From Escherichia phage EI-SP-GF: 64,000 nt of DNA. The number at the start of each line of letters is the position of its first letter. Position 1 is the stretch's first letter. The position numbers were made by a program, and so were the translations under genes. Below the pieces are notes generated by a model. That model was not told where the DNA came from, did no database searches, and saw nothing but the letters and a program-made list of their open reading frames with translations. This document shows positions 1 to 39,391 of the stretch, piece after piece. The stretch is from sequence record OR992645.1. One strand, written 5' to 3'.

Positions 1-976
1 ACCAGACGCTTGCGGGTCTTATCTTTAACCTGAACTTCTTCACCTCCGTTCAGGGTGGTTTTCAATTGGGACAAAATGTCCTGAAGCTCTACCACAGAGA
101 ATCGCTGCAGATCTTCCGAGGTAATCTCACCCAGTGCAATCTTAACGGTCTCACCACTCTCCATCTGCAGATTCAGGAACACAGTGTGAACATCACCTTT
201 CATACCATTTGCTTTTGCAGACTCAACAGCGTGAACCAGCTCGTCCAGAGATGTGCATTGGTGAATCTCTGGCAGGCCTGCTTCGCCTAGCACACCTTCT
301 TCATCACTTTTTGCCAAAAGCTTTTTCGGTTTCTGCCCATTCTGAATGCGCTGAATGTTTTCATCGTCCAGAATGATAGCACCAGTTCGAGCTGCCAGCT
401 CTTCTCCATCCAACCACACTTCTCCACCAGCCGTGATGGATGCGATCTCATCTTCTGTCAGAACCCCACCGTAGTATTTTTCGATCAGGCGTTCAAAACG
501 TTTCTTCCAGTAGTTGACCTGAGTATTCATGTTCACACCGTTGCCATAGGTGCCACCTTGATAGTAGTGGAACATAAACTCTGTGTCCGGAGCCACAGTT
601 CGTTCTTTGCAACCCAGCCATAAGATTGTTCCTGCTGAGCAGCACATCCCTTCAGCGTGTACAACAACGCTTGCCTGAGACTCGCGGAATGCCTGCAAAT
701 ACGCCATGGCAATGTGGACGCAACCACCAGGGCTGTTAACAATTACACGGATACTTTCTTCCGGCTGTGCCATACGAATTGTTTGCAAACGGGACATATG
801 ATCCTGCAAATCATCAAGATCGTCAATATAAAGCACGTGGTCAACAACTGGCGTTGGGTAGCTGTATGTTTCCATAATACCACCAGGCATACCAAACATT
901 TTATTACTCATCGGTTCGAAGCCGTTCTGTTTTTCTTTCATGCCGTGTACCATGGTGCTGCGAGGTGTTAAATTCA
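1..976 (-). CDS. ClpP-family serine protease (partial; C-terminus beyond window edge)
   Basis: Minus-strand ORF from ATG at 976, absent from ORF track because truncated; translation shows ClpP-like core IRVIVNSPGGCVHIAMAYL...HAEGMCCSAGTIL. Confidence 0.6.
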
Positions 977-1038
977 TGTGAGGTCCTTAATGTTGGAAAG
1001 TTAAAAGCGATCTATTTAAACCTGATTCTCATTTGCCT

Positions 1039-1350
1039 TTATTTAGCAATTACCATGGAATACTTACAATTGTCAGAAGCATCACAGGTCAACGATTGCC
1101 AGTCTACCACATACCACGTGTCATTGTCAACAATTACTTTATCCCCTGTTCTGTAAAATGTGTTGCTTTCAATAACACGGGACTCAGTGAAGAATCGGTG
1201 TCTTCGCTCACGTAGTAGCGCCAAGTTGATTATGTTACCACCGCTGTCCTTAATCCACACATTCTTGTATCCTTTGTTTGCCAAAATTGTCTCACCGTTA
1301 TAGACAAATAGGCAGTATATCTTATTCAGTCTCTCTTGTATTGTAGCCAT
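1039..1350 (-). CDS. hypothetical protein (103 aa)
   Basis: ORF in tightly packed minus-strand array; no recognisable motif. Confidence 0.35.
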   Translation of the reverse strand: MATIQERLNKIYCLFVYNGETILANKGYKNVWIKDSGGNIINLALLRERRHRFFTESRVIESNTFYRTGDKVIVDNDTWYVVDWQSLTCDASDNCKYSMVIAK

Positions 1351-1448
1351 ACTGTCATTCTCCTTGTTTTGTTCGATAATACCTAAAACTTATCTGTTTG
1401 TCAATAATTGTTTTAGATATTTAAGGGTGGAATAACCACCCTTCTGTA

Positions 1449-2237
1449 TTACTCGGAAACAGGGGTCCAAATATGATTTGCACGATCCTCGATAAGATTG
1501 AGTGCAATCTGACGACCCAACCCGGAACGAACGACATCATCTGGGCTATCAAAGCTAATCATCCCAACCTCAGGATCTGGATGACGAGTAAAGAAATCCG
1601 TTACCCATGCAAGTCCAGACTTACCAGGGATGTCACGTTGGCTATTATCACCCATGATTACAAGTGTGGCCTGATCAGAGATCCTTGTGATAATTGACAA
1701 CATTTCTTCAGGGTTAGTTTGCTGTGCCTCGTCAATTAGGACAAAGCACCGCTCATCGAAACTACGACCACGAATGCTTTCAACTTCACAGATCTCGATA
1801 CGACTGTTCTGACCATCTCCCAGCATTGCGGCAAAAGCACCTTTGCCAACACGACGACAAATCGTGTCCATCATGCTTCGGAGATAGGGCCACAGTTTCT
1901 GCATTGCGTTTCCAGGTTTAAACCCTGAAGTCTTTCCTGTCTGAACGTAAGGGCGTGCAACAATGATCTTATCAATCTCGTTCTTACGCAAAAGATCACC
2001 TGCATATGCGGATGCCATGAATGTCTTACCGGATCCAAACACACCGTTTACAATAATAATCTTACGCGATCCTAGATAATCAAGATACTTTTGCTGCTTT
2101 TTGTTCATTGGTCGGAGAGCTGGAGCTGTGTGCTCTCGTTCGTCAGCAAATTTCTCAGCAGCCTTACGCAGGCGATCAGATTTGCGAGCCTCTCTGGCTT
2201 CATCACGCATGCGTTTTGTTTCTTTAGCTCGACCCAT
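1449..2237 (-). CDS. phoH: PhoH-like ATPase
   Basis: Walker A GVFGSGKTF and Walker B LIDEAQ in a 262-aa protein. Confidence 0.8.
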   Translation of the reverse strand: MGRAKETKRMRDEAREARKSDRLRKAAEKFADEREHTAPALRPMNKKQQKYLDYLGSRKIIIVNGVFGSGKTFMASAYAGDLLRKNEIDKIIVARPYVQTGKTSGFKPGNAMQKLWPYLRSMMDTICRRVGKGAFAAMLGDGQNSRIEICEVESIRGRSFDERCFVLIDEAQQTNPEEMLSIITRISDQATLVIMGDNSQRDIPGKSGLAWVTDFFTRHPDPEVGMISFDSPDDVVRSGLGRQIALNLIEDRANHIWTPVSE

Positions 2238-2275
2238 GTTGGGACTCCTTTCAGATTGAGATGTGTCAAGGACTT

Positions 2276-2626
2276 TTACTGCAACAGTTTTTCAATAGCC
2301 GCTTCCATGCTGCTTGCAACAGCCTGAACTCGGATATTCATCTCTTCTTGGCGGATCAGCTCCTTAAGCTCTTTAACGGTGAATTCTTTAGAGAAACCTT
2401 CCACCATAATCTTGTGCAAGGCTTCTTGCGTGTCTACTTGCAAGAACTTTTCCAGTTTGTTGGCAGAGGCCTCTAAATCGGCCCGAATACGTGGGTCATC
2501 TGTTCGGTTCAGCATTAGGCGTAAGCCATCAAGATTAGTAGAAATAGCGTCTGCATGTTGAGTAACCAACCGTGGCAAAATGAGATCTACAAACTTACTG
2601 GCTAAATCAATACGCTCTTGTGTCAC
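2276..2626 (-). CDS. hypothetical protein (116 aa, GTG start)
   Basis: ORF track; start codon is GTG on inspection; no motif recognised. Confidence 0.35.
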   Translation of the reverse strand: MTQERIDLASKFVDLILPRLVTQHADAISTNLDGLRLMLNRTDDPRIRADLEASANKLEKFLQVDTQEALHKIMVEGFSKEFTVKELKELIRQEEMNIRVQAVASSMEAAIEKLLQ

Positions 2627-2798
2627 TGTTGCACCCCCTCTTCATCTTCATGATATTTCTTTTCACGCTTGTGTTTTTTCTTAAGCTCAAGCGCAATCTC
2701 TTTCTTGTACGCCTTCTTCAAGGCTTTTTTAGCCATTTGGCACCTCCTCTGCTTTCATTACGATAATTATAACCAACTTACCAAAGCTTTGTCAACGA

Positions 2799-3272
2799 TT
2801 AGTCAACCTGAACCCAACTGCCTGCTACCTTTTTAAACATTCTCTGGTTATCACTGCCTCGGAATGGTTTCTTTGTTGGTAAATCTTTTACATACTTGCC
2901 ATCAATGATGATATCAGCCAGCTCAAGAACATCACTAGAGATATGCTCAAATGTGAACCCAGTATACACAAGAATAGTTTTCTTGTCACCAAACTTTTCC
3001 TTAATTCTCCTCATAAGTTTAATAATACCGGGCTCATTATACGTAGCCAAAGGCTCTCCACCAAGCAAAGAAATACCGCATATAGATTCATTGTCCAAAT
3101 CTGACAAAATTCTCTGCAAATCTTCTTCGGTGAATTCTCTTCCCTTATCTTTGGACCAAAATGCTTGATTAAAGCAACCATGACAAGCGTGTGGGCACCC
3201 AGATACCCACAAGGCCGTCCTGAGACCTGGCCCTTCGGTGTAGGATATTTCTGTGTATCCGACAATATTCAT
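2799..3272 (-). CDS. nrdG: anaerobic ribonucleotide reductase activating protein (radical SAM)
   Basis: N-terminal CPHACHGCFN cysteine motif; directly downstream of nrdD. Confidence 0.85.
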   Translation of the reverse strand: MNIVGYTEISYTEGPGLRTALWVSGCPHACHGCFNQAFWSKDKGREFTEEDLQRILSDLDNESICGISLLGGEPLATYNEPGIIKLMRRIKEKFGDKKTILVYTGFTFEHISSDVLELADIIIDGKYVKDLPTKKPFRGSDNQRMFKKVAGSWVQVD

Positions 3273-3448: not shown

Positions 3449-4657
3449 TCAGCAACCACAGCTTCCGTAGTGCTTAACCCGTTCTATAACTTCCGCTTGC
3501 TTACCTTTGTTGTAAGGTCGGGAGTTTGGACTGGACAGATACCCAGATACACGTCTAATCACACTGATCGTTCCCTCTTCATGGTTTCCGCACTCTGGGC
3601 ATACAAAGCCTTTAGCTGTTGCACTGAACTCACCAGAGAATCCGCACTTAAGACATTTATCCACAGGTTGGTTAATACCAAAATACATAATGTGTTTATA
3701 CCCGAAATCGACAAGGGATTCCAAAGCATCCAGGTTGTTTTTCAGGTTAGGTGTTTCTATGTATCCAATGTTACCGCCAGAAGAGATCATAGCAAAACCT
3801 TCCTCATACTTCCACTTGTCAAAAGGTGAGCTATTGATCCACACGGGCTGGTGGAAACTGTTGGTAAGGTATTCGTGCTCGTGCTTCAACACTTCAGGAT
3901 ATTCACGATCTAGACATGTTGCAGCCTTATAGCACAAGCTCTCTGAAGGAGTGCCGTACAAGCTGAATGCCAGACCACTTTCTTTTTTGTACCGATCACA
4001 AGCGTCTTTCATGTGCTGAAGGATCCCAAGAGCTAAGGACTTGTCTCCCTCTCTGCCTAAAATCTGGCAGGTTTCATACACACCAATATATCCAATACTT
4101 ATGGAAGCATACCCGTCATAGAAGAGTTTATCAATACTCTCTTCAGGATCCAGGCGAGCAAGAGCTCCTTCACACCACATGATGGGGTTCTGCCCTGCCT
4201 TTGTTCCTTTTAGACGGTTAACCCTTACAAGGTGAGCCTCGTATGCCAGATCCAAGTACTCGTCAAGAACTGCAAAGAAATCAACACCTTCCGTTTTAGC
4301 TTTTGCCGCAATCATTGGTAGGTTAAGGCTAACAACACCTAAGTTAAATCTGCCAAGGTATTTCTCCTCTCCTGTTTCCAAGTCATTGTATTTGCTAAGA
4401 AAACTCCGGCAACCCATGCTTGTGACATTACCTTCTGTTGAACCTGTCACTTTTCTATTCAGTGGTACAGATACGAAGTCAGGATAAATCCGCTCTGCAG
4501 AGCATTCCAGAGCTAATCGTTTCAAATCATAGTTAGGATCCTCGGGGTTCATGTTGATACCCTCCTCCAGGAAGAACAGCACCTTAGGGAACACAGGTGT
4601 GATACGTTCTTCACCAAGACCCATTTTGTGGACTTTCAGGTAGTTTTTGGTAATCAT
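3449..4657 (-). CDS. nrdD: anaerobic ribonucleoside-triphosphate reductase, exon 2 (C-terminal part with glycyl-radical site)
   Basis: C-terminal CPECGN zinc site and RRVSGYL glycyl-radical motif; frame is open up to 4750 so true exon start may lie between 4657 and 4750. Confidence 0.85.
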   Translation of the reverse strand: MITKNYLKVHKMGLGEERITPVFPKVLFFLEEGINMNPEDPNYDLKRLALECSAERIYPDFVSVPLNRKVTGSTEGNVTSMGCRSFLSKYNDLETGEEKYLGRFNLGVVSLNLPMIAAKAKTEGVDFFAVLDEYLDLAYEAHLVRVNRLKGTKAGQNPIMWCEGALARLDPEESIDKLFYDGYASISIGYIGVYETCQILGREGDKSLALGILQHMKDACDRYKKESGLAFSLYGTPSESLCYKAATCLDREYPEVLKHEHEYLTNSFHQPVWINSSPFDKWKYEEGFAMISSGGNIGYIETPNLKNNLDALESLVDFGYKHIMYFGINQPVDKCLKCGFSGEFSATAKGFVCPECGNHEEGTISVIRRVSGYLSSPNSRPYNKGKQAEVIERVKHYGSCGC

Positions 4658-5508
4658 TCTACCAAAGATTGAGGTATCCAGTCCTAAACTTAATGTGATG
4701 AATGGAGTCTGCTGTCTCCTCCCCGTGTTTCCACAGGGCCAGACTATCTCTTACTCTACTTCAATAAGATAATAACCCTTTATTGTGAGATGCTTACCTT
4801 CGGCATTTCCTTCGATAGCCCTATGAACGTTACCTACGTTCAAATTTAAGGCTTTTGCACAGGCATAGAGTGAAGGATATTCACCCACCAAGGTTTTCCC
4901 TTTGTATGCCTGCACTTTCCTATAGCACTTGCCTGGACAAAGTCCTGTTCGGAAAGCATGTCTCTTATTATCTTCCGGCAAAACCCACTCTAGGTTAGAC
5001 GGATGATCATTCAATGTATTGCCATCTTTATGATTCACTTCCCAGTTTTCAGGGTCTTCTGGGACATCTGGCAAACAATACAAGGCAACAATCCTTGAGG
5101 TTTGGATTCGAATCTTTTTACCTTTGTGGTTGAAAGAGTACATATAACGGCGTTTAACATGCTTGTTACCTTTTCCATAACCTCCCCACAATATTGGGTG
5201 TAGCATTCCACGTTTTCCGTATACGTTTCCAACCTCATCAATCACATAGTTTGATTCTTCACCATTAAGAATGATCTTTTTCATAGAGCCTCTCCATTTC
5301 GAAGTTAGTATTTCAACTAACCCCTACACTACTTGGTTCAGAAATGTTTGTCAAGCATCTCTGCCTTTCGTTAGTCGTTACAACCGTTCCAACTCCTGTA
5401 AGAACTAGTCACGGGATTGGCATAGCTTTCGCCTTAGCGTTCCCCGTTAGCCGGATTTACCGACCCCTCTTATGAGGTTAGGAGAGTTTTACAACGGCCA
5501 GTTTGTTA
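4658..5508 (-). mobile_element. group I self-splicing intron interrupting nrdD, carrying an HNH homing endonuclease ORF (boundaries approximate)
   Basis: Sequence between the two nrdD ORFs; minus strand has P7-type elements AACGACTAAC (5' part) and AAGAGATAGTCTGG (3' part) matching group I R/S consensus; free-standing endonuclease ORF between them. Confidence 0.7.
4751..5284 (-). CDS. HNH homing endonuclease (intron-encoded)
   Basis: HNH motif NHKDGNTLNDHPSNLEWV in a 177-aa protein located inside the nrdD intron. Confidence 0.75.
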   Translation of the reverse strand: MKKIILNGEESNYVIDEVGNVYGKRGMLHPILWGGYGKGNKHVKRRYMYSFNHKGKKIRIQTSRIVALYCLPDVPEDPENWEVNHKDGNTLNDHPSNLEWVLPEDNKRHAFRTGLCPGKCYRKVQAYKGKTLVGEYPSLYACAKALNLNVGNVHRAIEGNAEGKHLTIKGYYLIEVE

Positions 5509-6369
5509 ACCGTTGACAGAAGTTAACGTATTGATTTGGTATAGCAAAGTTTGCATACTATCAAACACGTCTTTATCCGTCATTTGCATTGCAACAGTCT
5601 CAGCATCCGGCAACCAATGTTCCTGACAAAATTTAAGATTCTTCTCATAGGTTGCTTCAGCATACTGCGCCAGATAATGATCAATATGGCTCATGGTCTG
5701 ACCACCATACTGAGCACTAGCTACTGCACTAGAGATTTGGCTGAGGATTGTTGTTGCAACCCCTATTGACTTCGGCTTACTGACATGGGCGTTGCCAATG
5801 TTGAATCCGTTTTCCAGCATATCCGGATAATTCACCAAACAGCAGTTTGTTAACGGACTGATCAGATAGTCAAGATCATGCACATGGATGAATCCCTTGT
5901 TGTGCTCTTCGGAGACACGATCTGGCAGTATCTGTGTTGATGCAAGGTGTTTGCTAAGGATACCTGCAAGCAGGTCACGATGAGTATGTACATGATTAGT
6001 GGGCTTATTTGCGTTTTCTTTTGTAAATTCATCACAAGTTCGATCCAAGAAGCCACTAATATCTGCAAGCAGTTTTCCACCTGCCTCTCTGTTATTATCT
6101 CTTGTCTGTCTATACTGGATATATTCTCTGGCTGCACATTTTAAACCCATATCCATAAGAGCATCTTCAACAAGGATATGGATATTTTTTACAGAGATCG
6201 TGCACTGGTCGGTTGGTAGATTGTTGGCAACAACTTCATTAACCGCACAAGCGATCCGGTAAGCTTCTTCTTCAGTATGCCCAGACTCAAGTAAGGCGGA
6301 CTCTGCCGCCTTGATTACCTTAACTCCGTTATAGACCTCTTCTCTACCGTCCCGTTTTACAACTTTCAC
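5506..6369 (-). CDS. nrdD: anaerobic ribonucleoside-triphosphate reductase, exon 1 (N-terminal ATP-cone part)
   Basis: Starts MKVVKRDGREEVY (ATP-cone-like); ORF ends at a stop that lies at the 5' edge of the intron, exon probably ends near 5509. Confidence 0.85.
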   Translation of the reverse strand: MKVVKRDGREEVYNGVKVIKAAESALLESGHTEEEAYRIACAVNEVVANNLPTDQCTISVKNIHILVEDALMDMGLKCAAREYIQYRQTRDNNREAGGKLLADISGFLDRTCDEFTKENANKPTNHVHTHRDLLAGILSKHLASTQILPDRVSEEHNKGFIHVHDLDYLISPLTNCCLVNYPDMLENGFNIGNAHVSKPKSIGVATTILSQISSAVASAQYGGQTMSHIDHYLAQYAEATYEKNLKFCQEHWLPDAETVAMQMTDKDVFDSMQTLLYQINTLTSVNG

Positions 6370-6647: not shown

Positions 6648-7736
6648 TTAAAACTCCCAAATTTCTTCTTCAGCGTCATTAACAGTTGTGTTGACGCGAT
6701 AGTCGGTGTTAGACATTTCCTGGTTAGCCGTCTGTTGCAGTGAAGGTTTCATCCACACCTGCATAAACGGTAACGGGTCTTTTGTTGGCGGCACAAAGTC
6801 TTTGTCGATGTTATAGTAATCATAAATCGGTGAACAGTTATAGTCAACCCATTCTTTAAGTAATGGTGAGTTAAGCCCTATAATCGCCCTTCCTTCGCTG
6901 AAAATATAGTCACTCCAACCGTACTCCTTGATCCGTACTTCGTCAAGAATCTCTTTTAACTCTCCCTTAATCTCAAGAAAGCTTTGCTCCCATGTAGGAT
7001 CATCAAGCAGGATATCGATGATAGCAAAATCACCTTTCGAATGCAGCATCTCATCAAGCATAATTTTTTGAACGAGTTGTGCAACTTGAACAAAAATACC
7101 TTGCTCAGCTACTGCGAACGTACATGCAAAACTTGCAATAAACTCAATACTCTCTAGAGCTAAAAGTGCAAAAAGTGCTCTAAGGATACATTTCCGTACA
7201 ACATCTTCTTCAACACTGGAAGGATCCAGTCGGTATTTTGCACCAATAACCTCAAGCTCTTGCATATATTTGACAATAACTCCAGACCTGCTTAGCACGT
7301 TCTGGTTTTCCTGAATCTCTTCTATAATCTCACGAGCATTAGGAAGGCATTGTCTAACAATCTCTGAGTAAGTTAGTGCATGAAGAACCTCGATCTCAGA
7401 CTGCTTCATCAACAAGGTGAAAAGTTCACTATTAGTGATAAATGGTGAAAACAGACAAATGATAGATCTTGCTGCAACACTGTCTGCCTCCCATTGCCAC
7501 ATCAGTGTCTGCACCATTACATCGTAAGTTGACTTTGAGCATGTTACGAAATCCGAAATAGACTGTGACAAATCTACTTCGTCCTCTGCCCAATCTTGTT
7601 CTTTTTGTTTTTTGTATAGTTCAAACAGCTGTGGGTACTTTTTGTTAATAGAGTCGTACATCCCCATCTGCTGTCCTAAAAACAGCGGATAATCACCAGT
7701 TTTATGAGCAGTGTTCTCAGTATTAAATACAGCCAT
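6648..7736 (-). CDS. nrdB: ribonucleotide reductase class Ia small subunit
   Basis: Position next to nrdA and size (362 aa from MAVFNTEN) fit the class Ia small subunit; no signature motif was checked. Start moved from ORF-track 7826 to ATG at 7736 (GAGG RBS 8 nt upstream), since 7826 would overlap nrdA. Confidence 0.85.
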   Translation of the reverse strand: MAVFNTENTAHKTGDYPLFLGQQMGMYDSINKKYPQLFELYKKQKEQDWAEDEVDLSQSISDFVTCSKSTYDVMVQTLMWQWEADSVAARSIICLFSPFITNSELFTLLMKQSEIEVLHALTYSEIVRQCLPNAREIIEEIQENQNVLSRSGVIVKYMQELEVIGAKYRLDPSSVEEDVVRKCILRALFALLALESIEFIASFACTFAVAEQGIFVQVAQLVQKIMLDEMLHSKGDFAIIDILLDDPTWEQSFLEIKGELKEILDEVRIKEYGWSDYIFSEGRAIIGLNSPLLKEWVDYNCSPIYDYYNIDKDFVPPTKDPLPFMQVWMKPSLQQTANQEMSNTDYRVNTTVNDAEEEIWEF

Positions 7737-31031: not shown

Positions 31032-31315
31032 GAGTTACTGCACTGGTTGTTTTGTGCTTGTTATTGTGTGGGTGTGCAACCAGCGTTGAGAGAGAATACA
31101 AGATTGACCCTCCGGATGTAGGAAGGTTGATTGTTAAACCTCCCGAGGGTGCTATGAAACCACCTGCTAAAGCTATCCCTTTGAAGAAAGGTGCGCCAGA
31201 TGCGGTGAATTCTGGCATTATGAGGGATAATAACCTGTCTTGTAGTAATGATAGAGCTAAATTAATCATTTTGCAAGACTATATTAGAACACTGTTTCCA
31301 AAGGAGAGAGGTTAA
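31028..31315 (+). CDS. o-spanin (Rz1-like outer-membrane lipoprotein)
   Basis: Signal peptide with lipobox LLLCGC, Pro-rich mature part. Confidence 0.65.
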   Translation: MRVTALVVLCLLLCGCATSVEREYKIDPPDVGRLIVKPPEGAMKPPAKAIPLKKGAPDAVNSGIMRDNNLSCSNDRAKLIILQDYIRTLFPKERG

Positions 31316-31740
31316 TGTCTAAGATTTACGGACCGTGTTCTGAAAAGCAGAAGATGATCCTGGAAAATGATGCAGATATTTTGGTAATTGGCGGGGCTGC
31401 AGGATCTGGCAAGTCATTCCTCTTGCAGCTAATGCCGCTTAAAATTATTGATGACCCGCACAGCTCTGTGGTTATGTTCCGAAGAACAACCCCACAGTTG
31501 GAAGGTGAGGGGGGACTATGGCCTAAAGCAGTAGCTATTTATAGTGATCTGCCAGAAAACATTAAGCCAAAGTTTAGAGAGAAGGATCATAAGTTCATTT
31601 TTCCACGGTTTGATCCGAGCACTGGCAAGTGGGACAGGAGCAAAAAGGGAGCTGTTGTAAAATACTGCCACATGGAATATGTCCAAGATAAGCTTAACCA
31701 TCAGGGTTTGGAATACACCATGGTTTGCTTCGATGAGGGT
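31315..31740 (+). CDS. terminase large subunit, exon 1 (ATPase Walker A and B)
   Basis: Walker A GGAAGSGKS and Walker B MVCFDEG; ORF stops immediately after Walker B at the intron edge. Confidence 0.8.
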
Positions 31741-32092
31741 TAATTTGTAGCTCTCGTAAAACCTCCCTAATTGCGGGGAAATCTTTATTATTGACACCAC
31801 CAACCTGTCATGGTAACATAATAGAGGCTTCGAAGAGAGATCGAAGGTATGGTAACAGTGTGTTAATTTAGATAATCCGCAGCGAAGCATCCGAGAGGAT
31901 GAACGTTCAACGACTAGTCGAAAGACGTAGAATCAAGCGATTCGAAACGGGAGGGTAAGCGGTTGTTGTCGCTTATAAGATATAGTCTGGTCTGCATGGA
32001 GACATGCAGCTGCCTGAAAATGGCGGGGCAAGACTAGCGACCTTGCCCGAACATGAACGACACAATTCGAATGGGAGCAGATAGACTATCTG
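31741..32092 (+). ncRNA. group I intron (ORF-less) interrupting terminase large subunit; 3' boundary approximate (32057-32092)
   Basis: Canonical P/Q/R/S elements: AATTGCGGGGAAA (31769-31781), AATCCGCAGC (31874-31883), GTTCAACGACTAGTCG (31905-31920), AAGATATAGTCTGG (31977-31990); exon 1 ends with U. Confidence 0.7.
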
Positions 32093-33181
32093 ATGTCTCG
32101 TCTGCGATCTCAGTCAAAGTATCCATCAAGAATGGTTATCAGCTGTAACCCCGATTCAGAACACATGCTTGCCAAACTGGTTAGATGGTGGTTGGACGAT
32201 GAAGGGTATCCAGATCCGGAGAAATGCGGTAAGAAAAGATATTTTATCCGACGCGACGGTGAATTTATCTGGGGAGACTCTAAAGAAGAGTTGATAGAGA
32301 AATACACCACGGTTAACGGACTTGGCGTAGAGATCAAGCCAAGACCGTTGTCATTCTCGTTCATAGGCGCAACAATATTCGATAATCCTGTCTGTTTGAG
32401 AGACAACCCAGAATACCTTGCTTTCCTCGAAGGTCTACCAGAGCTGGAAAAAGCTCAGCTTCTCCATGGTAACTGGTTTGCAAAGCCTGAGGGTGCAAAC
32501 TATTTTCAAAGATCTTTCCTTCGTGATGCCGATAGAGTACCTCTTGGGTCAGTATCTTGCAGGGCATGGGATAAGGCAGGAACCGAGAGAACTTCCGGTA
32601 ATAAATTTCCTGACTTTACTGCCAGTATTAAGGTAAGTAAAGATAGCGACGGCTTTTATTACCTGTCCGGTGATTATTGTCCTGAGAACGTGGATGACGG
32701 GAGGTATTCCACAGGTCTGGAAGGCAAGTTCTGTAAAAAGGCTGGTGAACGAGATGTGATCATCAGGAAACAGGCGCAGTTCGATGGTGATGATTGCATA
32801 ATCGTCTTCTCTGTGGACCCAGGGCAGGCAGGTAAGAGTGAGTTCTTAACCTCCTCCAGATCCTTGCTTGCCGAAGGGTTCAGGGTTGAAGAAGACCCAA
32901 TGCCTTCCAACAAGTCTAAACTGACAAGGTTCTCACCTTTTGCCAATCTTGCCCAACAAGGAATGGTGAGGATTGTAAAATCCAGTTTCCATCCTGATAC
33001 TCTGGAAGCATTTCTGACTGAACTTGAAAAATTCAACGGGGAAAGATCAACATTTAACAGAAAAGACGACTGGGCCGACTGTGTAGCTTCTGCGATTAAT
33101 TTCCTAGAGAAAGAGGAGGTAGCACTTCCTTGTGTGATTCCATCAATCTCATCACCTTCTATGTTCAAGCGTTTTATCTAA
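32093..33181 (+). CDS. terminase large subunit, exon 2 (nuclease domain)
   Basis: Continues terminase after the intron in a different frame; frame open from 32057, so exon may start up to 36 nt upstream of ATG 32093. Confidence 0.75.
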   Translation: MSRLRSQSKYPSRMVISCNPDSEHMLAKLVRWWLDDEGYPDPEKCGKKRYFIRRDGEFIWGDSKEELIEKYTTVNGLGVEIKPRPLSFSFIGATIFDNPVCLRDNPEYLAFLEGLPELEKAQLLHGNWFAKPEGANYFQRSFLRDADRVPLGSVSCRAWDKAGTERTSGNKFPDFTASIKVSKDSDGFYYLSGDYCPENVDDGRYSTGLEGKFCKKAGERDVIIRKQAQFDGDDCIIVFSVDPGQAGKSEFLTSSRSLLAEGFRVEEDPMPSNKSKLTRFSPFANLAQQGMVRIVKSSFHPDTLEAFLTELEKFNGERSTFNRKDDWADCVASAINFLEKEEVALPCVIPSISSPSMFKRFI

Positions 33182-33281: not shown

Positions 33282-34838
33282 GTGTCCAAAAAGAACCGCA
33301 GGAAACACAACGCCACAGCCAAAACTGTGAATAAATCTGGGAACGCAGGCGCACCAACTCATAATGTTCGTATGAGTGAGATCGGTTCTGGCGCACTTTC
33401 CCAAATTATGGCAGAATCGCAATCTATGATGGTTGAGGAATTGCGTTGGCCTCAGCTGATTGCCACAGTGGAGACTATGAAATGTGATTCCACAGTTGCT
33501 ACTGCCTTAGATACAAAATATGTTTTCATCACGAAAGCATTCAATGATTTTAAGATCCTTTATAATGTTAAAAGTGAAGACTCTAAGAAAGCTGCCGAGC
33601 TTATAGAGTATTCTTTGCGTAATTTGGCAAACCAACAAACTCTTCGAGATATTGCAAGAAGCGCAGCTACCTTTAACGAGTATGGTTTTTCACTGTTTGA
33701 GAAAGTATACCGCAGAGAGAAAGAAGGTAAATATGCCGGGATGCTTCTTATCGATAAAATTGCATTCCGACCTCAGGCCAGCCTGTCCAGATCAGAGCCG
33801 TTTGTTTTTGATAAGAATAGCAGAACACTGACAGGTATTTATCAGTCACCTAATGCATTTCTAAACACTCAGAATGCACGCTGGGCTGGACCTCTTGCTG
33901 CAATGCCTTCAAAAGGCTTTAATGAGCCTGAAATTTTCATCCCTGCTAAAAAGCTTATGCTCATGACCCTGTCAGGAACAGAATCTAACCCTGCAGGTGT
34001 GTCACCTATGATAGGTTGCTACAGATCTTTCCGTGAGAAAGTTCTGATTGAAAACCTTGAGGTTGTTGGCTGTTCCAAAGACCTTGGTGGTGTGCTTGAG
34101 CTGAAAATTCCTTCCAATATTTTGAACAAGGCCAGCATTGACCCGAATTCAATGGAAGGGAGAATGGTTGCAGACCTTATGCTTGACGCAGCAAACGCCC
34201 ATAGTGGTGAGCAAAGTTTCTTTATACTTCCGTCTGATAGAGATAAGTCTGGTAAAGAGCTTTACTCCATGACCCTGAAGGGGGTTGACGGTATGGGTAA
34301 GCAGTATTCCACTAAAGATTTGATTGATGCCCGTAAAAAGGCGATTCTTGACCGTTTCGGTGCTGGCTTTATTAACCTAGGTAACGATAACGTTGGATCC
34401 TTCTCTCTGTCTGAGTCAAAACAGTCTATCCATGGTCATTTTGTTCAGCGTGATATAGATATTATCACTGAGGCCTTCAATAAGGATCTTATTCCACAGC
34501 TTCTGGCATTGAATGGTATCATCCTTGAAGATGATGATATGCCTAAACTGAAACCTGGTCTGATTGAAGAAGTGGATATGGAGAGCTTCTCCAAGTTTGT
34601 CCAGAGGATCGGTGCTGTAGGTTACTTGCCAAAAACTCCTGCAGTAATTAATAAGATTCTTGAAGTAGGCGGGTTTGATGAAAGATTTGACGAGGACATG
34701 GATCAGGAAGAGCTGATGAAGCTCTTGGGCCAGGACATCAGTAGAGCTGGTGATGGAATGGCTGCAGGATCCACTGGCAACGGTACTTCTAAGATATCAT
34801 CAACCAGAGATAATTCCATATCCAACATGGAAAATTAA
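33282..34838 (+). CDS. portal protein (GTG start)
   Basis: 518-aa protein immediately after terminase; size and position typical of portal; GAGGGG RBS. Confidence 0.65.
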   Translation: MSKKNRRKHNATAKTVNKSGNAGAPTHNVRMSEIGSGALSQIMAESQSMMVEELRWPQLIATVETMKCDSTVATALDTKYVFITKAFNDFKILYNVKSEDSKKAAELIEYSLRNLANQQTLRDIARSAATFNEYGFSLFEKVYRREKEGKYAGMLLIDKIAFRPQASLSRSEPFVFDKNSRTLTGIYQSPNAFLNTQNARWAGPLAAMPSKGFNEPEIFIPAKKLMLMTLSGTESNPAGVSPMIGCYRSFREKVLIENLEVVGCSKDLGGVLELKIPSNILNKASIDPNSMEGRMVADLMLDAANAHSGEQSFFILPSDRDKSGKELYSMTLKGVDGMGKQYSTKDLIDARKKAILDRFGAGFINLGNDNVGSFSLSESKQSIHGHFVQRDIDIITEAFNKDLIPQLLALNGIILEDDDMPKLKPGLIEEVDMESFSKFVQRIGAVGYLPKTPAVINKILEVGGFDERFDEDMDQEELMKLLGQDISRAGDGMAAGSTGNGTSKISSTRDNSISNMEN

Positions 34839-34905
34839 AAATTATCAACACAGGGGGTTGCAAAACCTCCTTTGGCGTGATAAAATAATCCACATGGGGA
34901 ATAAG

Positions 34906-35325
34906 ATGCCACAGGAAGAAATGATTTCCTACGAAATCATCTACGAGCCTGACACTAAAGATGCTCACGGTGAGTGGATGAGTAAAGACACCATCAAAAA
35001 GGCTAAAGATAACTGGGACGCAGCATACGCTGCAGGCCTAGTTTCTGAAAACCTTTTCCACTTGACCTCTACAGATGCTTTCACTATTGAAAAGACGTGG
35101 ATTCAAGAAGAGTTTGATGTTGTAGTAATTGGCACTGAGCAGGTCATCAAGGCTGGCTCTTGGGTTGCTAAAGTTAAATACAATAATCCTGAATTATGGG
35201 AAGCTAAGAAGGCTGGCATTGTTGGTGGCCTAAGCATTCAGGCAACAGGTAATGTTGATGAAGAAACTGGTGAAATTACCAACGTAAACTTCGGGATCAG
35301 TGTTGTAGAAGAGGGCAATGAATAA
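34906..35325 (+). CDS. hypothetical head-module protein (139 aa)
   Basis: Start moved to ATG 34906 after portal stop (GGGGA RBS); between portal and scaffold. Confidence 0.35.
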   Translation: MPQEEMISYEIIYEPDTKDAHGEWMSKDTIKKAKDNWDAAYAAGLVSENLFHLTSTDAFTIEKTWIQEEFDVVVIGTEQVIKAGSWVAKVKYNNPELWEAKKAGIVGGLSIQATGNVDEETGEITNVNFGISVVEEGNE

Positions 35326-36302
35326 TGTCTGAAAAAACGATTACTATTAAAGAGAAGGGGATTGCCCTGTGCCATAAGGCGCAAGGCTATAGCGCTAACA
35401 ACAGACCTGTATCTCTTTTGATGAAGAGTGATCTTAAGCCTGAGCAGTTAACAGACGATATTGTTAAGGCACTTCGCCAAGTTACTGTGGAGCTTAGTTT
35501 TGAAGAATACCTGCGTCGTTTCTTCGATATGTGGTATGATGATGCTAAAGCACTTGCACACATGCTTGGTTTTGAGATTGAAGAGGAGGCTTGGGCTAAA
35601 GAGCATCCCGATTGGGAATGGGCGCAAGCTGACGCAGAGTCTTGTATTGCATGGCTGGAAGAGCGTTGTGATAACGTGACCATTCATAAGGCTGCAAAAG
35701 AAGGCAAGCAGCTTAGTGTGGTAGATCAGTACAGCCTGTTAAAAACACAACAGATTTTTGAACAAGTAACCGCTGATCTCTTCGATAAAGAAGGGAACCT
35801 GATCAAGGCGGTACAGGAACCTACTGAGGTAGATAAAACTACCGAGGTGGATGATGTTGCAAAATCCGCAAATACCGAGGAGAATCCGGTGGACGTAACC
35901 AAAACTAAAGAGTATCTGGATCTGCTGAAGCAAGTAGAAGAGCTGAAAGCAACCCAGAGTAAAGCTGAAGAGATCATCAAGGCCCAGGTTGAAGTTGAAA
36001 AAGCTAAAATGCTGACTAAGGCTCAAGCTTTAAGCTTTGTTGGTGAAGAAGATCACGCAACCCTGGTTGACTTCATGCTGGAAAAAGCTAACGAACCTAT
36101 CGTAGCTATGCTGGAGAAAGCTCAAGCAAAAATTGAAGAGCTGGAAGCAGAGGTGCATAAAACTAAAGAAGAGTTTGCCACCACTGAACATGGTAATGAT
36201 GGCGAACCTGTTGTGGATGATATTGCAAAATCCGCAGAAGAAATTCTTGCTGAAAACGTTGCAAAAGCACTTGCTCGTGCACGTGCAGAATCTAACAAAT
36301 AA
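35325..36302 (+). CDS. putative scaffolding protein
   Basis: Acidic, Ala/Glu/Lys-rich coiled-coil sequence located just upstream of capsid genes. Confidence 0.5.
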   Translation: MSEKTITIKEKGIALCHKAQGYSANNRPVSLLMKSDLKPEQLTDDIVKALRQVTVELSFEEYLRRFFDMWYDDAKALAHMLGFEIEEEAWAKEHPDWEWAQADAESCIAWLEERCDNVTIHKAAKEGKQLSVVDQYSLLKTQQIFEQVTADLFDKEGNLIKAVQEPTEVDKTTEVDDVAKSANTEENPVDVTKTKEYLDLLKQVEELKATQSKAEEIIKAQVEVEKAKMLTKAQALSFVGEEDHATLVDFMLEKANEPIVAMLEKAQAKIEELEAEVHKTKEEFATTEHGNDGEPVVDDIAKSAEEILAENVAKALARARAESNK

Positions 36303-36322: not shown

Positions 36323-36712
36323 ATGATTACCGCTCAATATTCTGATATCGTGCTCGGCAAAGTTGATTCTAGCGATGCTGGCTACAATTTTAAAGAGATG
36401 GAAATTACACTGACAGAGCACCATCATGCTGGTACTGTTGTAACAAAAACTGGCACTATCGCTAACGATGATGGCTCAGATGTTTATGGTGTTCTTGTAG
36501 ACCGAGCTCTGGTAAAAGATGCAGGAAAAGTTCATCTTGCTGAGCCTCTGCAAACAGGTCAGAAATATAAACTGGTTGTTGCAGTTCACGGTGTTACCTT
36601 TGCAAAAGATAAGCTGCTGGGGTCTAACGGTGAAGCAGCTAAGCAGGCTGTCCTTGAAAAGCTGGAAGCTCTGGGTAACAAAGTCCACGTCCAGACTCTT
36701 GGTGAAGAGTAA
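36323..36712 (+). CDS. putative head decoration/accessory protein (129 aa)
   Basis: Immediately upstream of major capsid gene; host-optimised codons; GGGGGAAA RBS. Confidence 0.3.
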   Translation: MITAQYSDIVLGKVDSSDAGYNFKEMEITLTEHHHAGTVVTKTGTIANDDGSDVYGVLVDRALVKDAGKVHLAEPLQTGQKYKLVVAVHGVTFAKDKLLGSNGEAAKQAVLEKLEALGNKVHVQTLGEE

Positions 36713-36759: not shown

Positions 36760-37767
36760 ATGATTACTCGTAAAGATGAATTTGGCATTGTTGATTTAGG
36801 TGCTACTCTGGAACTTGTTCCGCGCCAATTCCGACTGATTACTGGTATGGATCTGTTCGAAACCCGTCTCGGCACCTCAACGATTGCTCAGATCGAGCGT
36901 GTTGATGAAGTTGTAACCGACATTCCGGCACGCCGTCGTGGTGGTGAGCGTAACTACGTTGGTAGTGAACGTGCCCAGGTTAAAAACCTGAACATCCCGT
37001 TCTTCCCTCTGGACAAAGGCATCACTGCCGCAGATGTTCAGAACTTCCGTCGTTACTTCACCCCTGATGCTCCGAAAACTGTTCAGGACGTAGTAACCCG
37101 CGTTGTTCGCCGTATCCGTGTTTCTCATGAAGCACTGCGTGAGAAAGCACTGTTCCAGGCTATTCTGGGTAAATCCTATGCACCTGGTGACACCACCTGT
37201 CAGTATGACTACTACACTCTGTGGGGTGTGTCTCAGAAGTCTGTTGAGATCGACCCTGCAAAAGCAGATCAGGATCCTATGGAGGTTCTGGAAGAAGCTC
37301 GTCTGCACATCGCACTGCAAGCTGGTGATAACGCAGCTGGCTATCGTATTGTAGCTCTGTGCTCACCAGAGTTCTTCAGTGCTATTACCCATCACCCGCT
37401 GGTAGAACTGGCATACACCTATTACGGCTCTGCTCAGGAACCTCTGCGTCGCCGTCTGGGTGCTGGCGGTCAAGACAGCGTATACCGTGTGTTTGAACAT
37501 AAAGGTATCACCTTTATCGAAGATATTTCTGGCAATATTCCTAAGAAAGAGGCTCGCATCCTGCCGATGGGTATTGATCAGATGTTCCAGCTGCACTTTG
37601 CTCCGGCAGACGATGTTAACGAAGCAAACACTCCAGCACAGGAACTGTACATGTGGTACAAACACTCTGCATACCTGCGTGAAGAGAAGATTGAATCTGA
37701 AACTTCCATGCTGGCAGTTAACACCCGTCCAGAGCTGGTTGTTAAAGCAACTCTGAAAGGTGAATAA
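36760..37767 (+). CDS. major capsid protein
   Basis: 335 aa; strong RBS GGAGAAATAA; codon usage conspicuously biased to CTG/CGT/GGT; followed by strong terminator. Confidence 0.6.
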   Translation: MITRKDEFGIVDLGATLELVPRQFRLITGMDLFETRLGTSTIAQIERVDEVVTDIPARRRGGERNYVGSERAQVKNLNIPFFPLDKGITAADVQNFRRYFTPDAPKTVQDVVTRVVRRIRVSHEALREKALFQAILGKSYAPGDTTCQYDYYTLWGVSQKSVEIDPAKADQDPMEVLEEARLHIALQAGDNAAGYRIVALCSPEFFSAITHHPLVELAYTYYGSAQEPLRRRLGAGGQDSVYRVFEHKGITFIEDISGNIPKKEARILPMGIDQMFQLHFAPADDVNEANTPAQELYMWYKHSAYLREEKIESETSMLAVNTRPELVVKATLKGE

Positions 37768-39362: not shown

Positions 39363-39391
39363 TTGCTTTTGATGTATCTTTGTGGTAAAAT
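39363..39391 (+). promoter_or_regulatory. sigma70-like promoter (TTGCTT-N17-TAAAAT, TGGTAAAAT extended -10)
   Basis: Hexamers at 39363-39368 and 39386-39391. Confidence 0.45.

Follow-up and report, generated by a model that had tools for sequence, protein, structure and literature searches.

The ClpP-like gene of rV5-like phages is already known: it has been annotated from the rV5 genome paper onward, gp122 is listed in rV5 Table S3, and over 100 genomes carry the gene under the name "ClpP ATP-dependent protease subunit". The Vequintavirinae gp122 family (phrog_5410) includes FV3_00114, S127 BCL3 clpP, PVP-SE1 gp151 and CR3_205. Within Vequintavirus the identities are 96-100%, and for other genera of this subfamily they are 30-70%. 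These homologues share a length class and a C-terminal extension, and their genes have PhoH upstream and a small methyltransferase-like gene downstream. Cellular ClpP (MEROPS S14; E. coli, PDB 1TYF/3MT6) has the fold, the Ser and His positions and the handle helix in common with gp122. Short orphan ClpP-like proteins of phages form phrog_1827, which gp122 matches at E 1.5e-38; members are ICP1 gp211, Otagovirus phiPsa300_045, Barbavirus gp076 and proteins of Pakpunavirus, Sugarlandvirus and KVP40-like phages. Like gp122, they are encoded among replication and nucleotide-metabolism genes and not among head genes, often directly 3' of PhoH. Unlike gp122, most of them are about 180-240 aa long and lack the extension, and in ICP1 gp211 the extension is of another kind and the third catalytic position is occupied by Asp. 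The best-scoring relatives of gp122 outside its own family are the ClpP-related head-maturation proteases (NF045542, NF045540; phrog_1684, 94 and 133; lambda gpC-like S49 relatives), in which, as in gp122, the protease domain is followed by a C-terminal extension. gp122 differs from them in scoring below their 120-bit cut-off, in lying outside the head module, in not being late and in its absence from virions.

The window analysed here is a stretch of 64,000 nucleotides from Escherichia phage EI-SP-GF (OR992645.1), an rV5-like Vequintavirus with 99.9% identity to Escherichia phage S127 BCL3. An initial annotation had placed a ClpP-like ORF on the minus strand at its left end, and this was borne out: the gene (1..977, minus strand) is the rV5 gp122 orthologue according to its translation, Pfam, PHROG and rV5 Table S3. 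Pfam PF00574 CLP_protease matches at E 1e-12 (48.8 bits; gathering score 20.2), and phrog_5410 'ATP-dependent protease' matches at E 2.2e-147, aligning residues 24-325 with profile positions 4-302 of 323 and thereby taking in the C-terminal extension. The extent had been given as 1-976; the ORF is there, but its start was one base off, with the ATG at 977..975 preceded at a spacing of 6 nt by a ribosome-binding site, AAGGA (984..988, minus strand). Codons 1-325 of 349 lie inside the window, and the remaining 24 codons, together with the terminator, are found beyond its left edge. The full 349-codon gene, which the initial annotation had proposed to obtain from flanking sequence, was recovered in the 99.9%-identical S127 BCL3 (L001:5928-6977). 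Beyond the cut at codon 325, the window copy shows no substantive difference from Vequintavirinae gp122 and has the same neighbours.

Upstream of the ClpP-like gene on the minus strand is a small ORF of unknown function (1039..1350; rV5 gp121 in rV5 Table S3, 103 aa, phrog_5456). A sigma-70-type promoter, TTGACA-17-TATTAT, is found at 1376..1404 on the minus strand (11/12 matches in the scan); it is P121 of rV5, and window 1404..1376 corresponds to 7404..7376 of S127 BCL3. The terminator GCCCTCTTCGGAGGGCTTTTAT stands directly left of the window edge in S127 BCL3, and both P121 and terminator t122 are listed in rV5 Table S4. This small transcription unit starts at promoter P121, takes in gene 121 and, as its last gene, gene 122, and closes at terminator t122; the rV5 transcription unit 82-163 has gene 122 mid-unit. 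The gene for a PhoH-like P-loop ATPase (rV5 gp120; rV5 Table S3 and neighbourhood survey) lies further upstream at 1449..2237, minus strand. No perfect late-promoter motif was found 5' of the ClpP-like gene, and the four perfect motifs, at 39383, 42903, 57054 and 62564, are all on the plus strand in the plus-strand late region. The ClpP-like gene had been described as the last of the early minus-strand array, which does not hold, as more than 20 further minus-strand genes lie beyond it in S127 BCL3 and FV3. PADLOC gave no defence or anti-defence match for the ClpP-like protein or gp121. Between gp121 and the ORF at the upstream position in Certrevirus and Seunavirus, homology was marginal (E 0.002 for 47 residues in a pairwise comparison) and was not used.

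The head genes are encoded on the plus strand. The portal gene (33282..34838; phrog_113 E 2e-88, Pfam Portal_Mu) is followed by a candidate XkdF-type head-maturation protease gene (34906..35325), an acidic, helical scaffold-like or capsid protein gene (35325..36302; PHROG match to phrog_2970), a head decoration protein gene (36323..36712; phrog_2680 E 4e-40) and the gene for a major capsid protein of the lambda gpE type (36760..37767; Pfam Phage_cap_E E 4e-40). The large distance of the ClpP-like gene from the head genes, pointed out initially, was confirmed; the portal and major capsid genes are about 32-36 kb away. The accompanying statement that the head module has no obvious prohead protease was overturned by the gene between the portal and scaffold-like genes. 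Its product matches Pfam PF14550 Peptidase_S78_2 (E 1.1e-17; 64.6 bits, cutoff 24) and the head-maturation protease families phrog_1530, phrog_3017 and phrog_15223. A mechanical ORF call begins at GTG 34750 inside the portal gene; the start annotated in S127 BCL3 is ATG 34906. A late-promoter-like motif with one mismatch is located near the gene at 34878..34887. Residues D19, H21, H52 and S110 are invariant across 19 homologues and, by analogy with HK97-type proteases, would be the catalytic residues. Relatives are labelled 'XkdF-like serine protease', 'prohead protease' or 'capsid protease'. The gene resembles those of the XkdF/Peptidase_S78_2 prohead proteases ICP1 gp125 and W70_136 in its domain, its conserved His/Ser motifs and the gene order portal-protease-scaffold-decoration-capsid; gp125 belongs to the late class of ICP1, and W70_136 is virion-associated. 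A literature search found no enzymatic characterisation of any XkdF/Peptidase_S78_2 member, and no solved structure for an XkdF-type protease was detectable by sequence. Because phrog_1530 bears the name 'DNA methyltransferase', the 'DNA methyltransferase' gene downstream of the ClpP-like gene (rV5 gp123) was suspected of encoding a second XkdF-like protein; this was rejected, as gp123 belongs to phrog_799 and has weak methylase hits.

Proteomic and expression data from related phages bear on whether either protease is part of the head. In W70 virions, the XkdF-type homologue W70_136 (phrog_1530) was detected with 40 spectra, and W70_135, the homologue of the phrog_2970 protein, was abundant. 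rV5 gp61, the counterpart of the decoration protein, reached 85% MS coverage. MS peptides of the rV5 major capsid protein gp60 begin at residue 5, and therefore no large N-terminal propeptide is removed. gp122 is absent among the 19 rV5 virion proteins, and W70 encodes a ClpP-like homologue that is absent from its virion proteome. In ICP1, the ClpP-like homologue gp211, whose protease domain is 36% identical to the window protein, and PhoH gp208 belong to the 'Middle-late' class, whereas the capsid genes gp122-126, including the S78_2 protease gp125, are 'Late'. The middle-phase timing of gp122 is taken from its promoter type and from ICP1, not from an rV5-like phage. The ClpP-like gene itself lies some 32 kb away from the portal gene and on the other strand, under a sigma-70 promoter, and it shows neither the score, the head-module location nor the late expression of a head-maturation protease gene.

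The ClpP-fold catalytic domain spans about aa 37-213 (339..869, minus strand; AlphaFold2 and Foldseek). AlphaFold2 pLDDT was 89-96 across most of this domain, and in Foldseek the model aligned to ClpPs in the PDB at an rmsd of about 2.8 A across some 160 columns, with E about 3e-10 and TM (target) 0.65-0.73. The alignments and the AlphaFold2 model indicate that the handle region is present. Ser114 (codon tca, 636..638, minus strand) aligns in hhalign with E. coli ClpP Ser97 (mature numbering) and is the predicted nucleophile; His137 (codon cac, 567..569, minus strand) aligns with ClpP His122 and is the predicted general base. Both are invariant in 44/44 family members, as are the surrounding G-x-S-A-G and M-x-H motifs among these diverse relatives. 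Unlike cellular ClpP, the protein does not complete the triad with Asp: the position of the catalytic Asp171 is occupied by Glu186 (codon 420..422, minus strand; phmmer against PDB ClpPs and column counts), and among the 44 relatives this column holds Gln in 40 and Glu in four.

Further differences from cellular ClpP lie on the surface where unfoldases dock. ClpX and ClpA (through their IGF/IGL loops) and ADEP bind a pocket formed by L48, F49, Y60, Y62, F82, I90, M92, L114, L189 and other residues (bioRxiv 10.1101/2023.03.01.530711). As mapped by sequence and profile alignment only, the hydrophobic apical pocket is not retained and conserved Arg, Glu, His and Glu take its place: Y60 corresponds to R77 (43/44), F82 to E99 (43/44), I90 to H107 (42/44) and M92 to E109 (43/44). 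In the same alignments, F112, which from the general pocket literature we take to be a docking-pocket residue, corresponds to T127, L114 is replaced by Ser or Ala, and ClpP L48, F49 and E51 fall within a 5-residue deletion. The hhalign profile match begins at residue 36 of the ClpP precursor, and residues 1-35 of the phage protein (pLDDT <50) are predicted to be disordered and have no similarity to the axial-loop segment of ClpP, although they may include a divergent segment that does the same job. Scores against curated ClpP models were far under the cut-offs (33.1 bits against 308.6 for NCBIfam TIGR00493 clpP; 20-39 bits against 228-361 for other, PRK models). The top curated model was 'ClpP-related head maturation protease' (60.3 bits, cutoff 120), and phrog_1684 matched at E 1e-22. 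In the comparison of ClpP with prohead-protease profiles, suggested at the outset, the curated models of both kinds stayed under cutoff, with the head-maturation models slightly better than cellular ClpP. Judged by its sequence, the gp122-type protein is not an orthodox ClpP.

The remainder of the protein, an extension of roughly 135 residues that cellular ClpP lacks, consists of a linker and a family-specific C-terminal domain (1..338, minus strand, aa 214-325, running to aa 349 outside the window; AlphaFold2). AlphaFold2 predicted a disordered linker at 223-237 and then an alpha/beta domain with pLDDT 63-93. A single-sequence AlphaFold2 model of aa 214-325 (pLDDT 62.7) had no significant fold match in the PDB (best E 0.07), a sequence profile search of the PDB with the extension gave nothing below E 0.1, and a Pfam search at E<=10 gave no consistent family. 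The profile of the extension obtained only 11 hits among 1.84 billion representative proteins. Six of these were ClpP-like proteins or a fragment of one, and the other examined hits were a Rho_N-repeat protein, a 53-aa fragment and two long proteins in which matched stretches were either absent or short and numerous. The extension is confined to the gp122-type family. The alignments gave the impression of a HeH/Rho_N/SAP-like motif, but support for it was slight (Rho_N-repeat protein E 5e-4; hhalign probability 2.4%), and Rho_N in one relative was under the cut-off (E 0.018); the motif is not regarded as established. A scaffold or targeting domain shared with the phrog_2970 scaffold-like protein was discarded (BLASTP E 0.38).

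These data can be read in several ways. The initial annotation raised the possibility that the ClpP-like protein is the prohead protease in an unusual position, and four observations speak against it: the S78_2 protease in the head module; the W70 virions, which carry the homologue of that protease and not the ClpP-like protein; the absence of gp122 from rV5 virions; and the 'middle-late' class of the ICP1 homologue as opposed to the 'late' capsid genes. If gp122 were an additional (second or auxiliary) head protease, or an internal component of the head that its C-terminal domain targets to the prohead, this would be in keeping with the ClpP-type head-maturation proteases being the nearest curated and PHROG models outside the family. 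ClpP-type prohead proteases usually have C-terminal targeting or scaffold extensions, and the extension of gp122 fits this pattern. Location alone is not decisive, because at least one virion protein gene, that of rV5 gp133, is in the minus-strand array that also holds gene 122. Maturation proteases are often lost from mature virions, and a transient role in the prohead is for this reason compatible with the proteomes. This role is nevertheless quite improbable given the XkdF-type protease in the canonical position and in W70 virions, the lack of gp122 in both virion proteomes, the sigma-70 promoter and the middle-late ICP1 homologue. The extension also has no similarity to the scaffold-like protein, and the PhoH/ClpP-like pair is found among nucleotide-metabolism genes in every lineage examined. 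Of the two findings that had been named as deciding against a head role, a canonical head-module protease was found, by bioinformatics and in virions of a related phage, and the evidence for a non-structural ClpP-like protein is its absence from two virion proteomes.

An orthodox ClpP subunit, which would form mixed or separate tetradecamers that cooperate with host ClpX/ClpA and redirect host proteolysis, agrees with the Pfam CLP_protease score, with cellular ClpPs as the top structural matches, and with the conserved Ser and His and the handle region. We regard it as unlikely, since the ClpX/ADEP pocket is charged or polar and partly deleted, the family does not keep the catalytic Asp, TIGR00493 is matched at 33 bits (cutoff 308.6), and the 35 N-terminal residues are unrelated and predicted to be disordered. 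The C-terminal domain would moreover exit on the docking face. The V5-like phage LL12 has been screened on the Keio collection; only LPS genes were found to be required, and clp genes are not mentioned in the paper. The missing third triad residue and the lost pocket could alternatively point to a ClpP-fold protein that is catalytically dead or whose role is purely regulatory or structural; it could, for instance, be a decoy that sequesters adaptors or poisons the ClpP rings of the host. Against this very unlikely reading, the invariance of Ser114, His137 and their motifs across 44 relatives argues for retained catalysis, and ICP1 gp211 keeps Asp at the third position.

The rV5 gp122-type protein is probably a non-structural, middle-phase ClpP-fold serine peptidase, with capsid maturation carried out instead by the XkdF-type protease encoded at 34906..35325. 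Its own promoter and terminator, the timing in ICP1 and its absence from virions together indicate a separate, non-structural protease, and a separate proteolytic function, the other option of the initial annotation, is the better supported of its two readings. gp122 may form ClpP-like rings in which peptides or unfolded or targeted proteins would be cleaved in the internal chamber. As its sequence suggests, it would not use the host ClpX/ClpA unfoldases canonically. In ClpP, the C-terminus comes out on the apical face next to the ClpX/ClpA pocket, and the extra domains of gp122 are therefore probably located where an unfoldase would dock. In such a model, the C-terminal domains may be a built-in substrate-recruiting or gating module. 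Substrates would be host or phage proteins turned over in the replication and nucleotide-metabolism phase, and gp122 may act in the pathway or regulon of the adjacent PhoH-like ATPase. In our literature search, we came across no experiment on a gp122-type protein or close homologue and no publication on what phage ClpP-like proteins do when encoded outside head modules; the protease is not treated in the phi92 structure paper or in the ICP1 capsid paper.

The linkage with PhoH extends beyond the Vequintavirinae. Among loci from IMG/VR, the ClpP-like gene is preceded on its own strand by PhoH in 17/17 Vequintavirinae-like, 8/8 Otagovirus-like and 2/2 Barbavirus cases, and in the Otagovirus-like ones the PhoH stop and the ClpP-like start overlap. 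ICP1, Alteromonas phage V22 (CDS-146/147) and a Vibrio phage lineage have the order PhoH-ClpP-like as well, and in ICP1 the two genes share one expression class. At 22 distant loci, with ClpP-like ORFs mostly of about 190-680 aa, no PhoH was present within the flanks examined. An alignment of short ClpP-like proteins offered no conserved stretches for a degenerate-pattern scan. The PhoH-like ATPase and the ClpP-like peptidase might constitute a conserved two-gene module whose products cooperate, for example in ATP-driven degradation or RNA-protein quality control that would replace the lost ClpX/ClpA interface. We consider such cooperation doubtful; common ancestry of the synteny block is a simpler explanation of the adjacency.

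Our analysis indicates that recognition of the XkdF-type gene resolves the puzzle of the missing head protease in these phages. Several records name the true head protease 'DNA methyltransferase' or 'hypothetical', which can be corrected. For gp122, 'ATP-dependent Clp protease proteolytic subunit' is probably a misleading product name, as the features for coupling to ClpX/ClpA appear not to be conserved. Orphan ClpP-like genes outside head modules are a widespread class linked to PhoH, itself a widespread phage gene.

The ClpP-like gene is a minus-strand ORF that starts at an ATG at 977..975, behind a ribosome-binding site, AAGGA, at 988..984, and in translation it runs off the left window edge after 325 codons. 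In nucleotide comparison, S127 BCL3 is 99.9% identical to window bases 1-3000, and FV3, rV5 and about 100 other Vequintavirus genomes are 92-94% identical to them. The full gene in S127 BCL3 has 1050 nt and encodes 349 aa. The gene was already known and annotated: Table S3 of the rV5 paper lists gene 122 as 'ClpP (ATP-dependent) protease subunit' (PMC3606486), and nearly all related records carry similar names. A literature search found no test of the biochemical function of the protein. Its ClpP-like nature, recognised in the initial annotation, is solid. The ORF matches Pfam CLP_protease (E 1e-12) and phrog_5410 (E 2e-147), the AlphaFold2 model has a pLDDT of 89-96 across most of residues 45-215, and the top PDB structure matches of the model are all ClpP (E about 3e-10, TM (target) 0.65-0.73, rmsd about 2.8 A). 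Contrary to the initial annotation, the minus-strand array does not end with this gene: S127 BCL3 and FV3 have more than 20 further minus-strand genes beyond it, and rV5 gene 122 lies inside the transcription block of genes 82-163.

We collected 88 relatives of the ClpP-like protein and aligned 44 diverse ones; the E. coli ClpP sequence used for comparison was checked against PDB 3MT6. Ser114 and His137, which occupy the positions of ClpP Ser97 and His122, do not vary among the aligned sequences (44/44). Where ClpP has the catalytic Asp171, the window protein has Glu186; of the 44 relatives, 40 have Gln and four have Glu. In the profile alignment, docking-pocket residues of ClpP are replaced (Y60 by Arg77, F82 by Glu99, I90 by His107, M92 by Glu109, F112 by Thr127 and L114 by Ser/Ala); F112 was added as a further pocket residue. 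Each replacement is kept in 42-43 of the 44 sequences, and L48, F49 and E51 fall inside a five-residue deletion. F112 apart, the list of ADEP/IGF-loop pocket residues was that of bioRxiv 10.1101/2023.03.01.530711. The first 35 residues are predicted to be disordered and bear no recognisable sequence similarity to the axial loops of ClpP. The profile comparison between ClpP and prohead proteases suggested in the initial annotation gave scores below the cut-off on both sides: 33 bits against 308.6 for TIGR00493 clpP, and 60.3 bits against 120 for the best NCBI curated model, 'head maturation protease, ClpP-related'. The protein differs in several defining tests both from ClpP proper and from curated ClpP-type head proteases. 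We therefore read the gene product as a ClpP-fold Ser-His peptidase; its departures from ClpP proper argue that it is not an orthodox ClpP.

AlphaFold2 models residues from about 214 to 349 as a disordered linker that leads into a small alpha/beta domain (pLDDT 63-93). This extension has no significant match in a PDB fold search, no Pfam family and no relative among PDB sequences. At E <= 1e-3, a profile of the domain retrieved no more than 11 of 1.84 billion representative proteins, and six of these were ClpP-like, a fragment included. A helix-extended-helix (Rho_N/SAP-like) motif, seen by eye and in very weak matches, had no support from hhalign and is not claimed. E. coli ClpP L189, a docking-pocket residue (bioRxiv 10.1101/2023.03.01.530711), lies four residues before the C-terminus, so an extension starting there would sit on the apical face. 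From this predicted position we infer that the extra domain may replace, rather than recruit, an unfoldase.

The initial annotation saw no obvious prohead protease in the head module and considered that the ClpP-like protein might be one in an unusual position, or else have a separate proteolytic function. The head module in fact has an XkdF-type Peptidase_S78_2 gene between the portal gene (33282..34838, plus strand) and a scaffold-like gene. The plus-strand ORF spans 34750..35325, with a probable true start at ATG 34906 as annotated in S127 BCL3. It matches Pfam PF14550 (E 1.1e-17, 64.6 bits, cut-off 24) and PHROG head-maturation protease families, and D19, H21, H52 and S110 (GG-L/V-S motif) are invariant among 19 diverse homologues. 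Relatives name it 'prohead protease' (EmilHeitz, PaulScherrer), 'capsid protease' (ICP1) or 'XkdF-like serine protease'. On the same strand follow the scaffold-like protein (35325..36302; 325 aa, acidic, helical, phrog_2970), the decoration gene (36323..36712, phrog_2680) and the lambda-E-type major capsid gene (36760..37767). The C-terminal extension of the ClpP-like protein shows no similarity to the scaffold-like protein.

The evidence so far indicates that the ClpP-like protein is not structural. In rV5, gp122 (38,541 Da) is missing from the 19 proteins of virion MudPIT. Maturation proteases can themselves be missing from mature virions. Mass spectrometry of virions of the related phage W70 found 28 proteins, including the phrog_1530 capsid maturation protease, the phrog_2970 protein, the phrog_2680 decoration protein and the phrog_29 major capsid protein, and the ClpP-like protein encoded by the W70 genome was absent among the 28 (PMC11370258). 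These are the PHROGs matched by the head-module ORFs of the window. Placement in an 'early array' alone would not rule out a structural role, because the same minus-strand array also codes for gp133, a protein of the rV5 virion. A small ORF outside the window, downstream of the ClpP-like gene (2459..2914 in L001, the S127 BCL3 locus; 2491..2946 in L002, that of a relative), is annotated 'virion structural protein' in FV3; this is probably gp133, which is among the predominant rV5 virion proteins in mass spectrometry. With a protease in the head module and virions without the ClpP-like protein, a displaced prohead protease is not supported, and a separate proteolytic function is the reading that stands.

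Several further observations concern the head genes. Many related records (slur16, phiTE, PHB05, ZCKP1) call the XkdF/S78_2 protease a 'hypothetical protein' or a 'DNA methyltransferase', and the latter is also the name of phrog_1530, its best PHROG; this is likely a mis-annotation that has spread. W70_135, the phrog_2970 homologue, is abundant in mature virions (913 spectra), so the scaffold-like protein may stay in the capsid as a component instead of being removed like a classical scaffold. Major capsid protein peptides from rV5 virions start at residue 5. No large N-terminal domain is thus trimmed off this protein, and the head protease presumably cuts scaffold, portal or internal proteins. 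In the window the large terminase gene lies in separate pieces (31315..31743 and 32093..33181), which fits the introns and homing endonuclease described in rV5 terL; in S127 BCL3 it is one gene of 1548 nt.

Transcription signals and expression timing also speak against a structural role of the ClpP-like protein. A near-consensus sigma-70 promoter, TTGACA-17-TATTAT (1404..1376, minus strand), corresponds to rV5 P121 and precedes gene 121 (1039..1350, minus), which lies between it and the ClpP-like gene. A strong terminator after the ClpP-like gene, just beyond the window, is rV5 t122. The rV5 late-promoter-like motif TGGTAAAATA occurs 21 times in the whole window with at most one mismatch, against six expected. 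The four perfect copies (39383, 42903, 57054, 62564) all map to the plus strand of the late region, where the tail and later morphogenesis genes lie. ICP1 shares the ClpP-like and head-module protease genes with rV5-like phages. RNA-seq of ICP1 puts the capsid cluster gp122-126, to which the Peptidase_S78_2 gene gp125 belongs, in the 'Late' class, and PhoH gp208 through ClpP gp211 in the 'Middle-late' class (PMC7567579, Table S1). PhoH and the 'orphan' ClpP-like gene thus share an expression class there.

A PhoH-like ATPase gene (1449..2237, minus strand) lies just upstream of the ClpP-like gene. The same order on one strand is found in CR3, a Seunavirus, ICP1, Otagovirus phiPsa300 (where stop and start overlap), Barbavirus and Vibrio phage 496E54-1, and is also reported for Alteromonas phage V22 (PMC7289586). 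The same-strand pair is conserved in the compared loci L004, L005, L006, L010-L029 and L052-L061. In IMG/VR, PhoH was within 2 kb upstream in 17/17 Vequintavirinae-like, 8/8 Otagovirus-like and 2/2 Barbavirus loci. It was absent from the flanks available for 22 distant loci, where the ClpP-like match was weaker and the ORFs were mostly about 190-680 aa long, and for three KVP40-like loci, as well as from the 3-kb flanks examined in a Sugarlandvirus and a Pakpunavirus. The small ORFs between the two genes vary by lineage, which suggests ancestral direct adjacency. A methyltransferase-like gene, dCMP deaminase and DNA ligase recur around the pair, so inherited synteny is a sufficient explanation; functional coupling is only a possibility.

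Farther along the window, the anaerobic ribonucleotide reductase gene nrdD (3449..6369) is in two pieces (3449..4657 and 5506..6369) split by an HNH homing-endonuclease ORF (4751..5284). FV3 has the same split, whereas S127 BCL3, 99.9% identical otherwise, has an uninterrupted nrdD of 2124 nt. About 20 'Campylobacter phage' records (host given as C. jejuni; among them MG065677, MG065672, MG065653 and MG065645) share 90-97% identity with rV5-like or Phapecoctavirus coliphages and are probably contaminants or host mislabelled.

We propose that the ClpP-like protein may be a middle-phase, self-compartmentalised Ser-His peptidase, which would bypass the canonical ClpX/ClpA interface and bear its own apical domain. 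That it is at once non-structural, not the head protease and not an orthodox ClpP seems to us likely; the details of assembly and substrate are held with much lower confidence. 'ATP-dependent Clp protease proteolytic subunit', as a product name, is best taken as a label of the fold.
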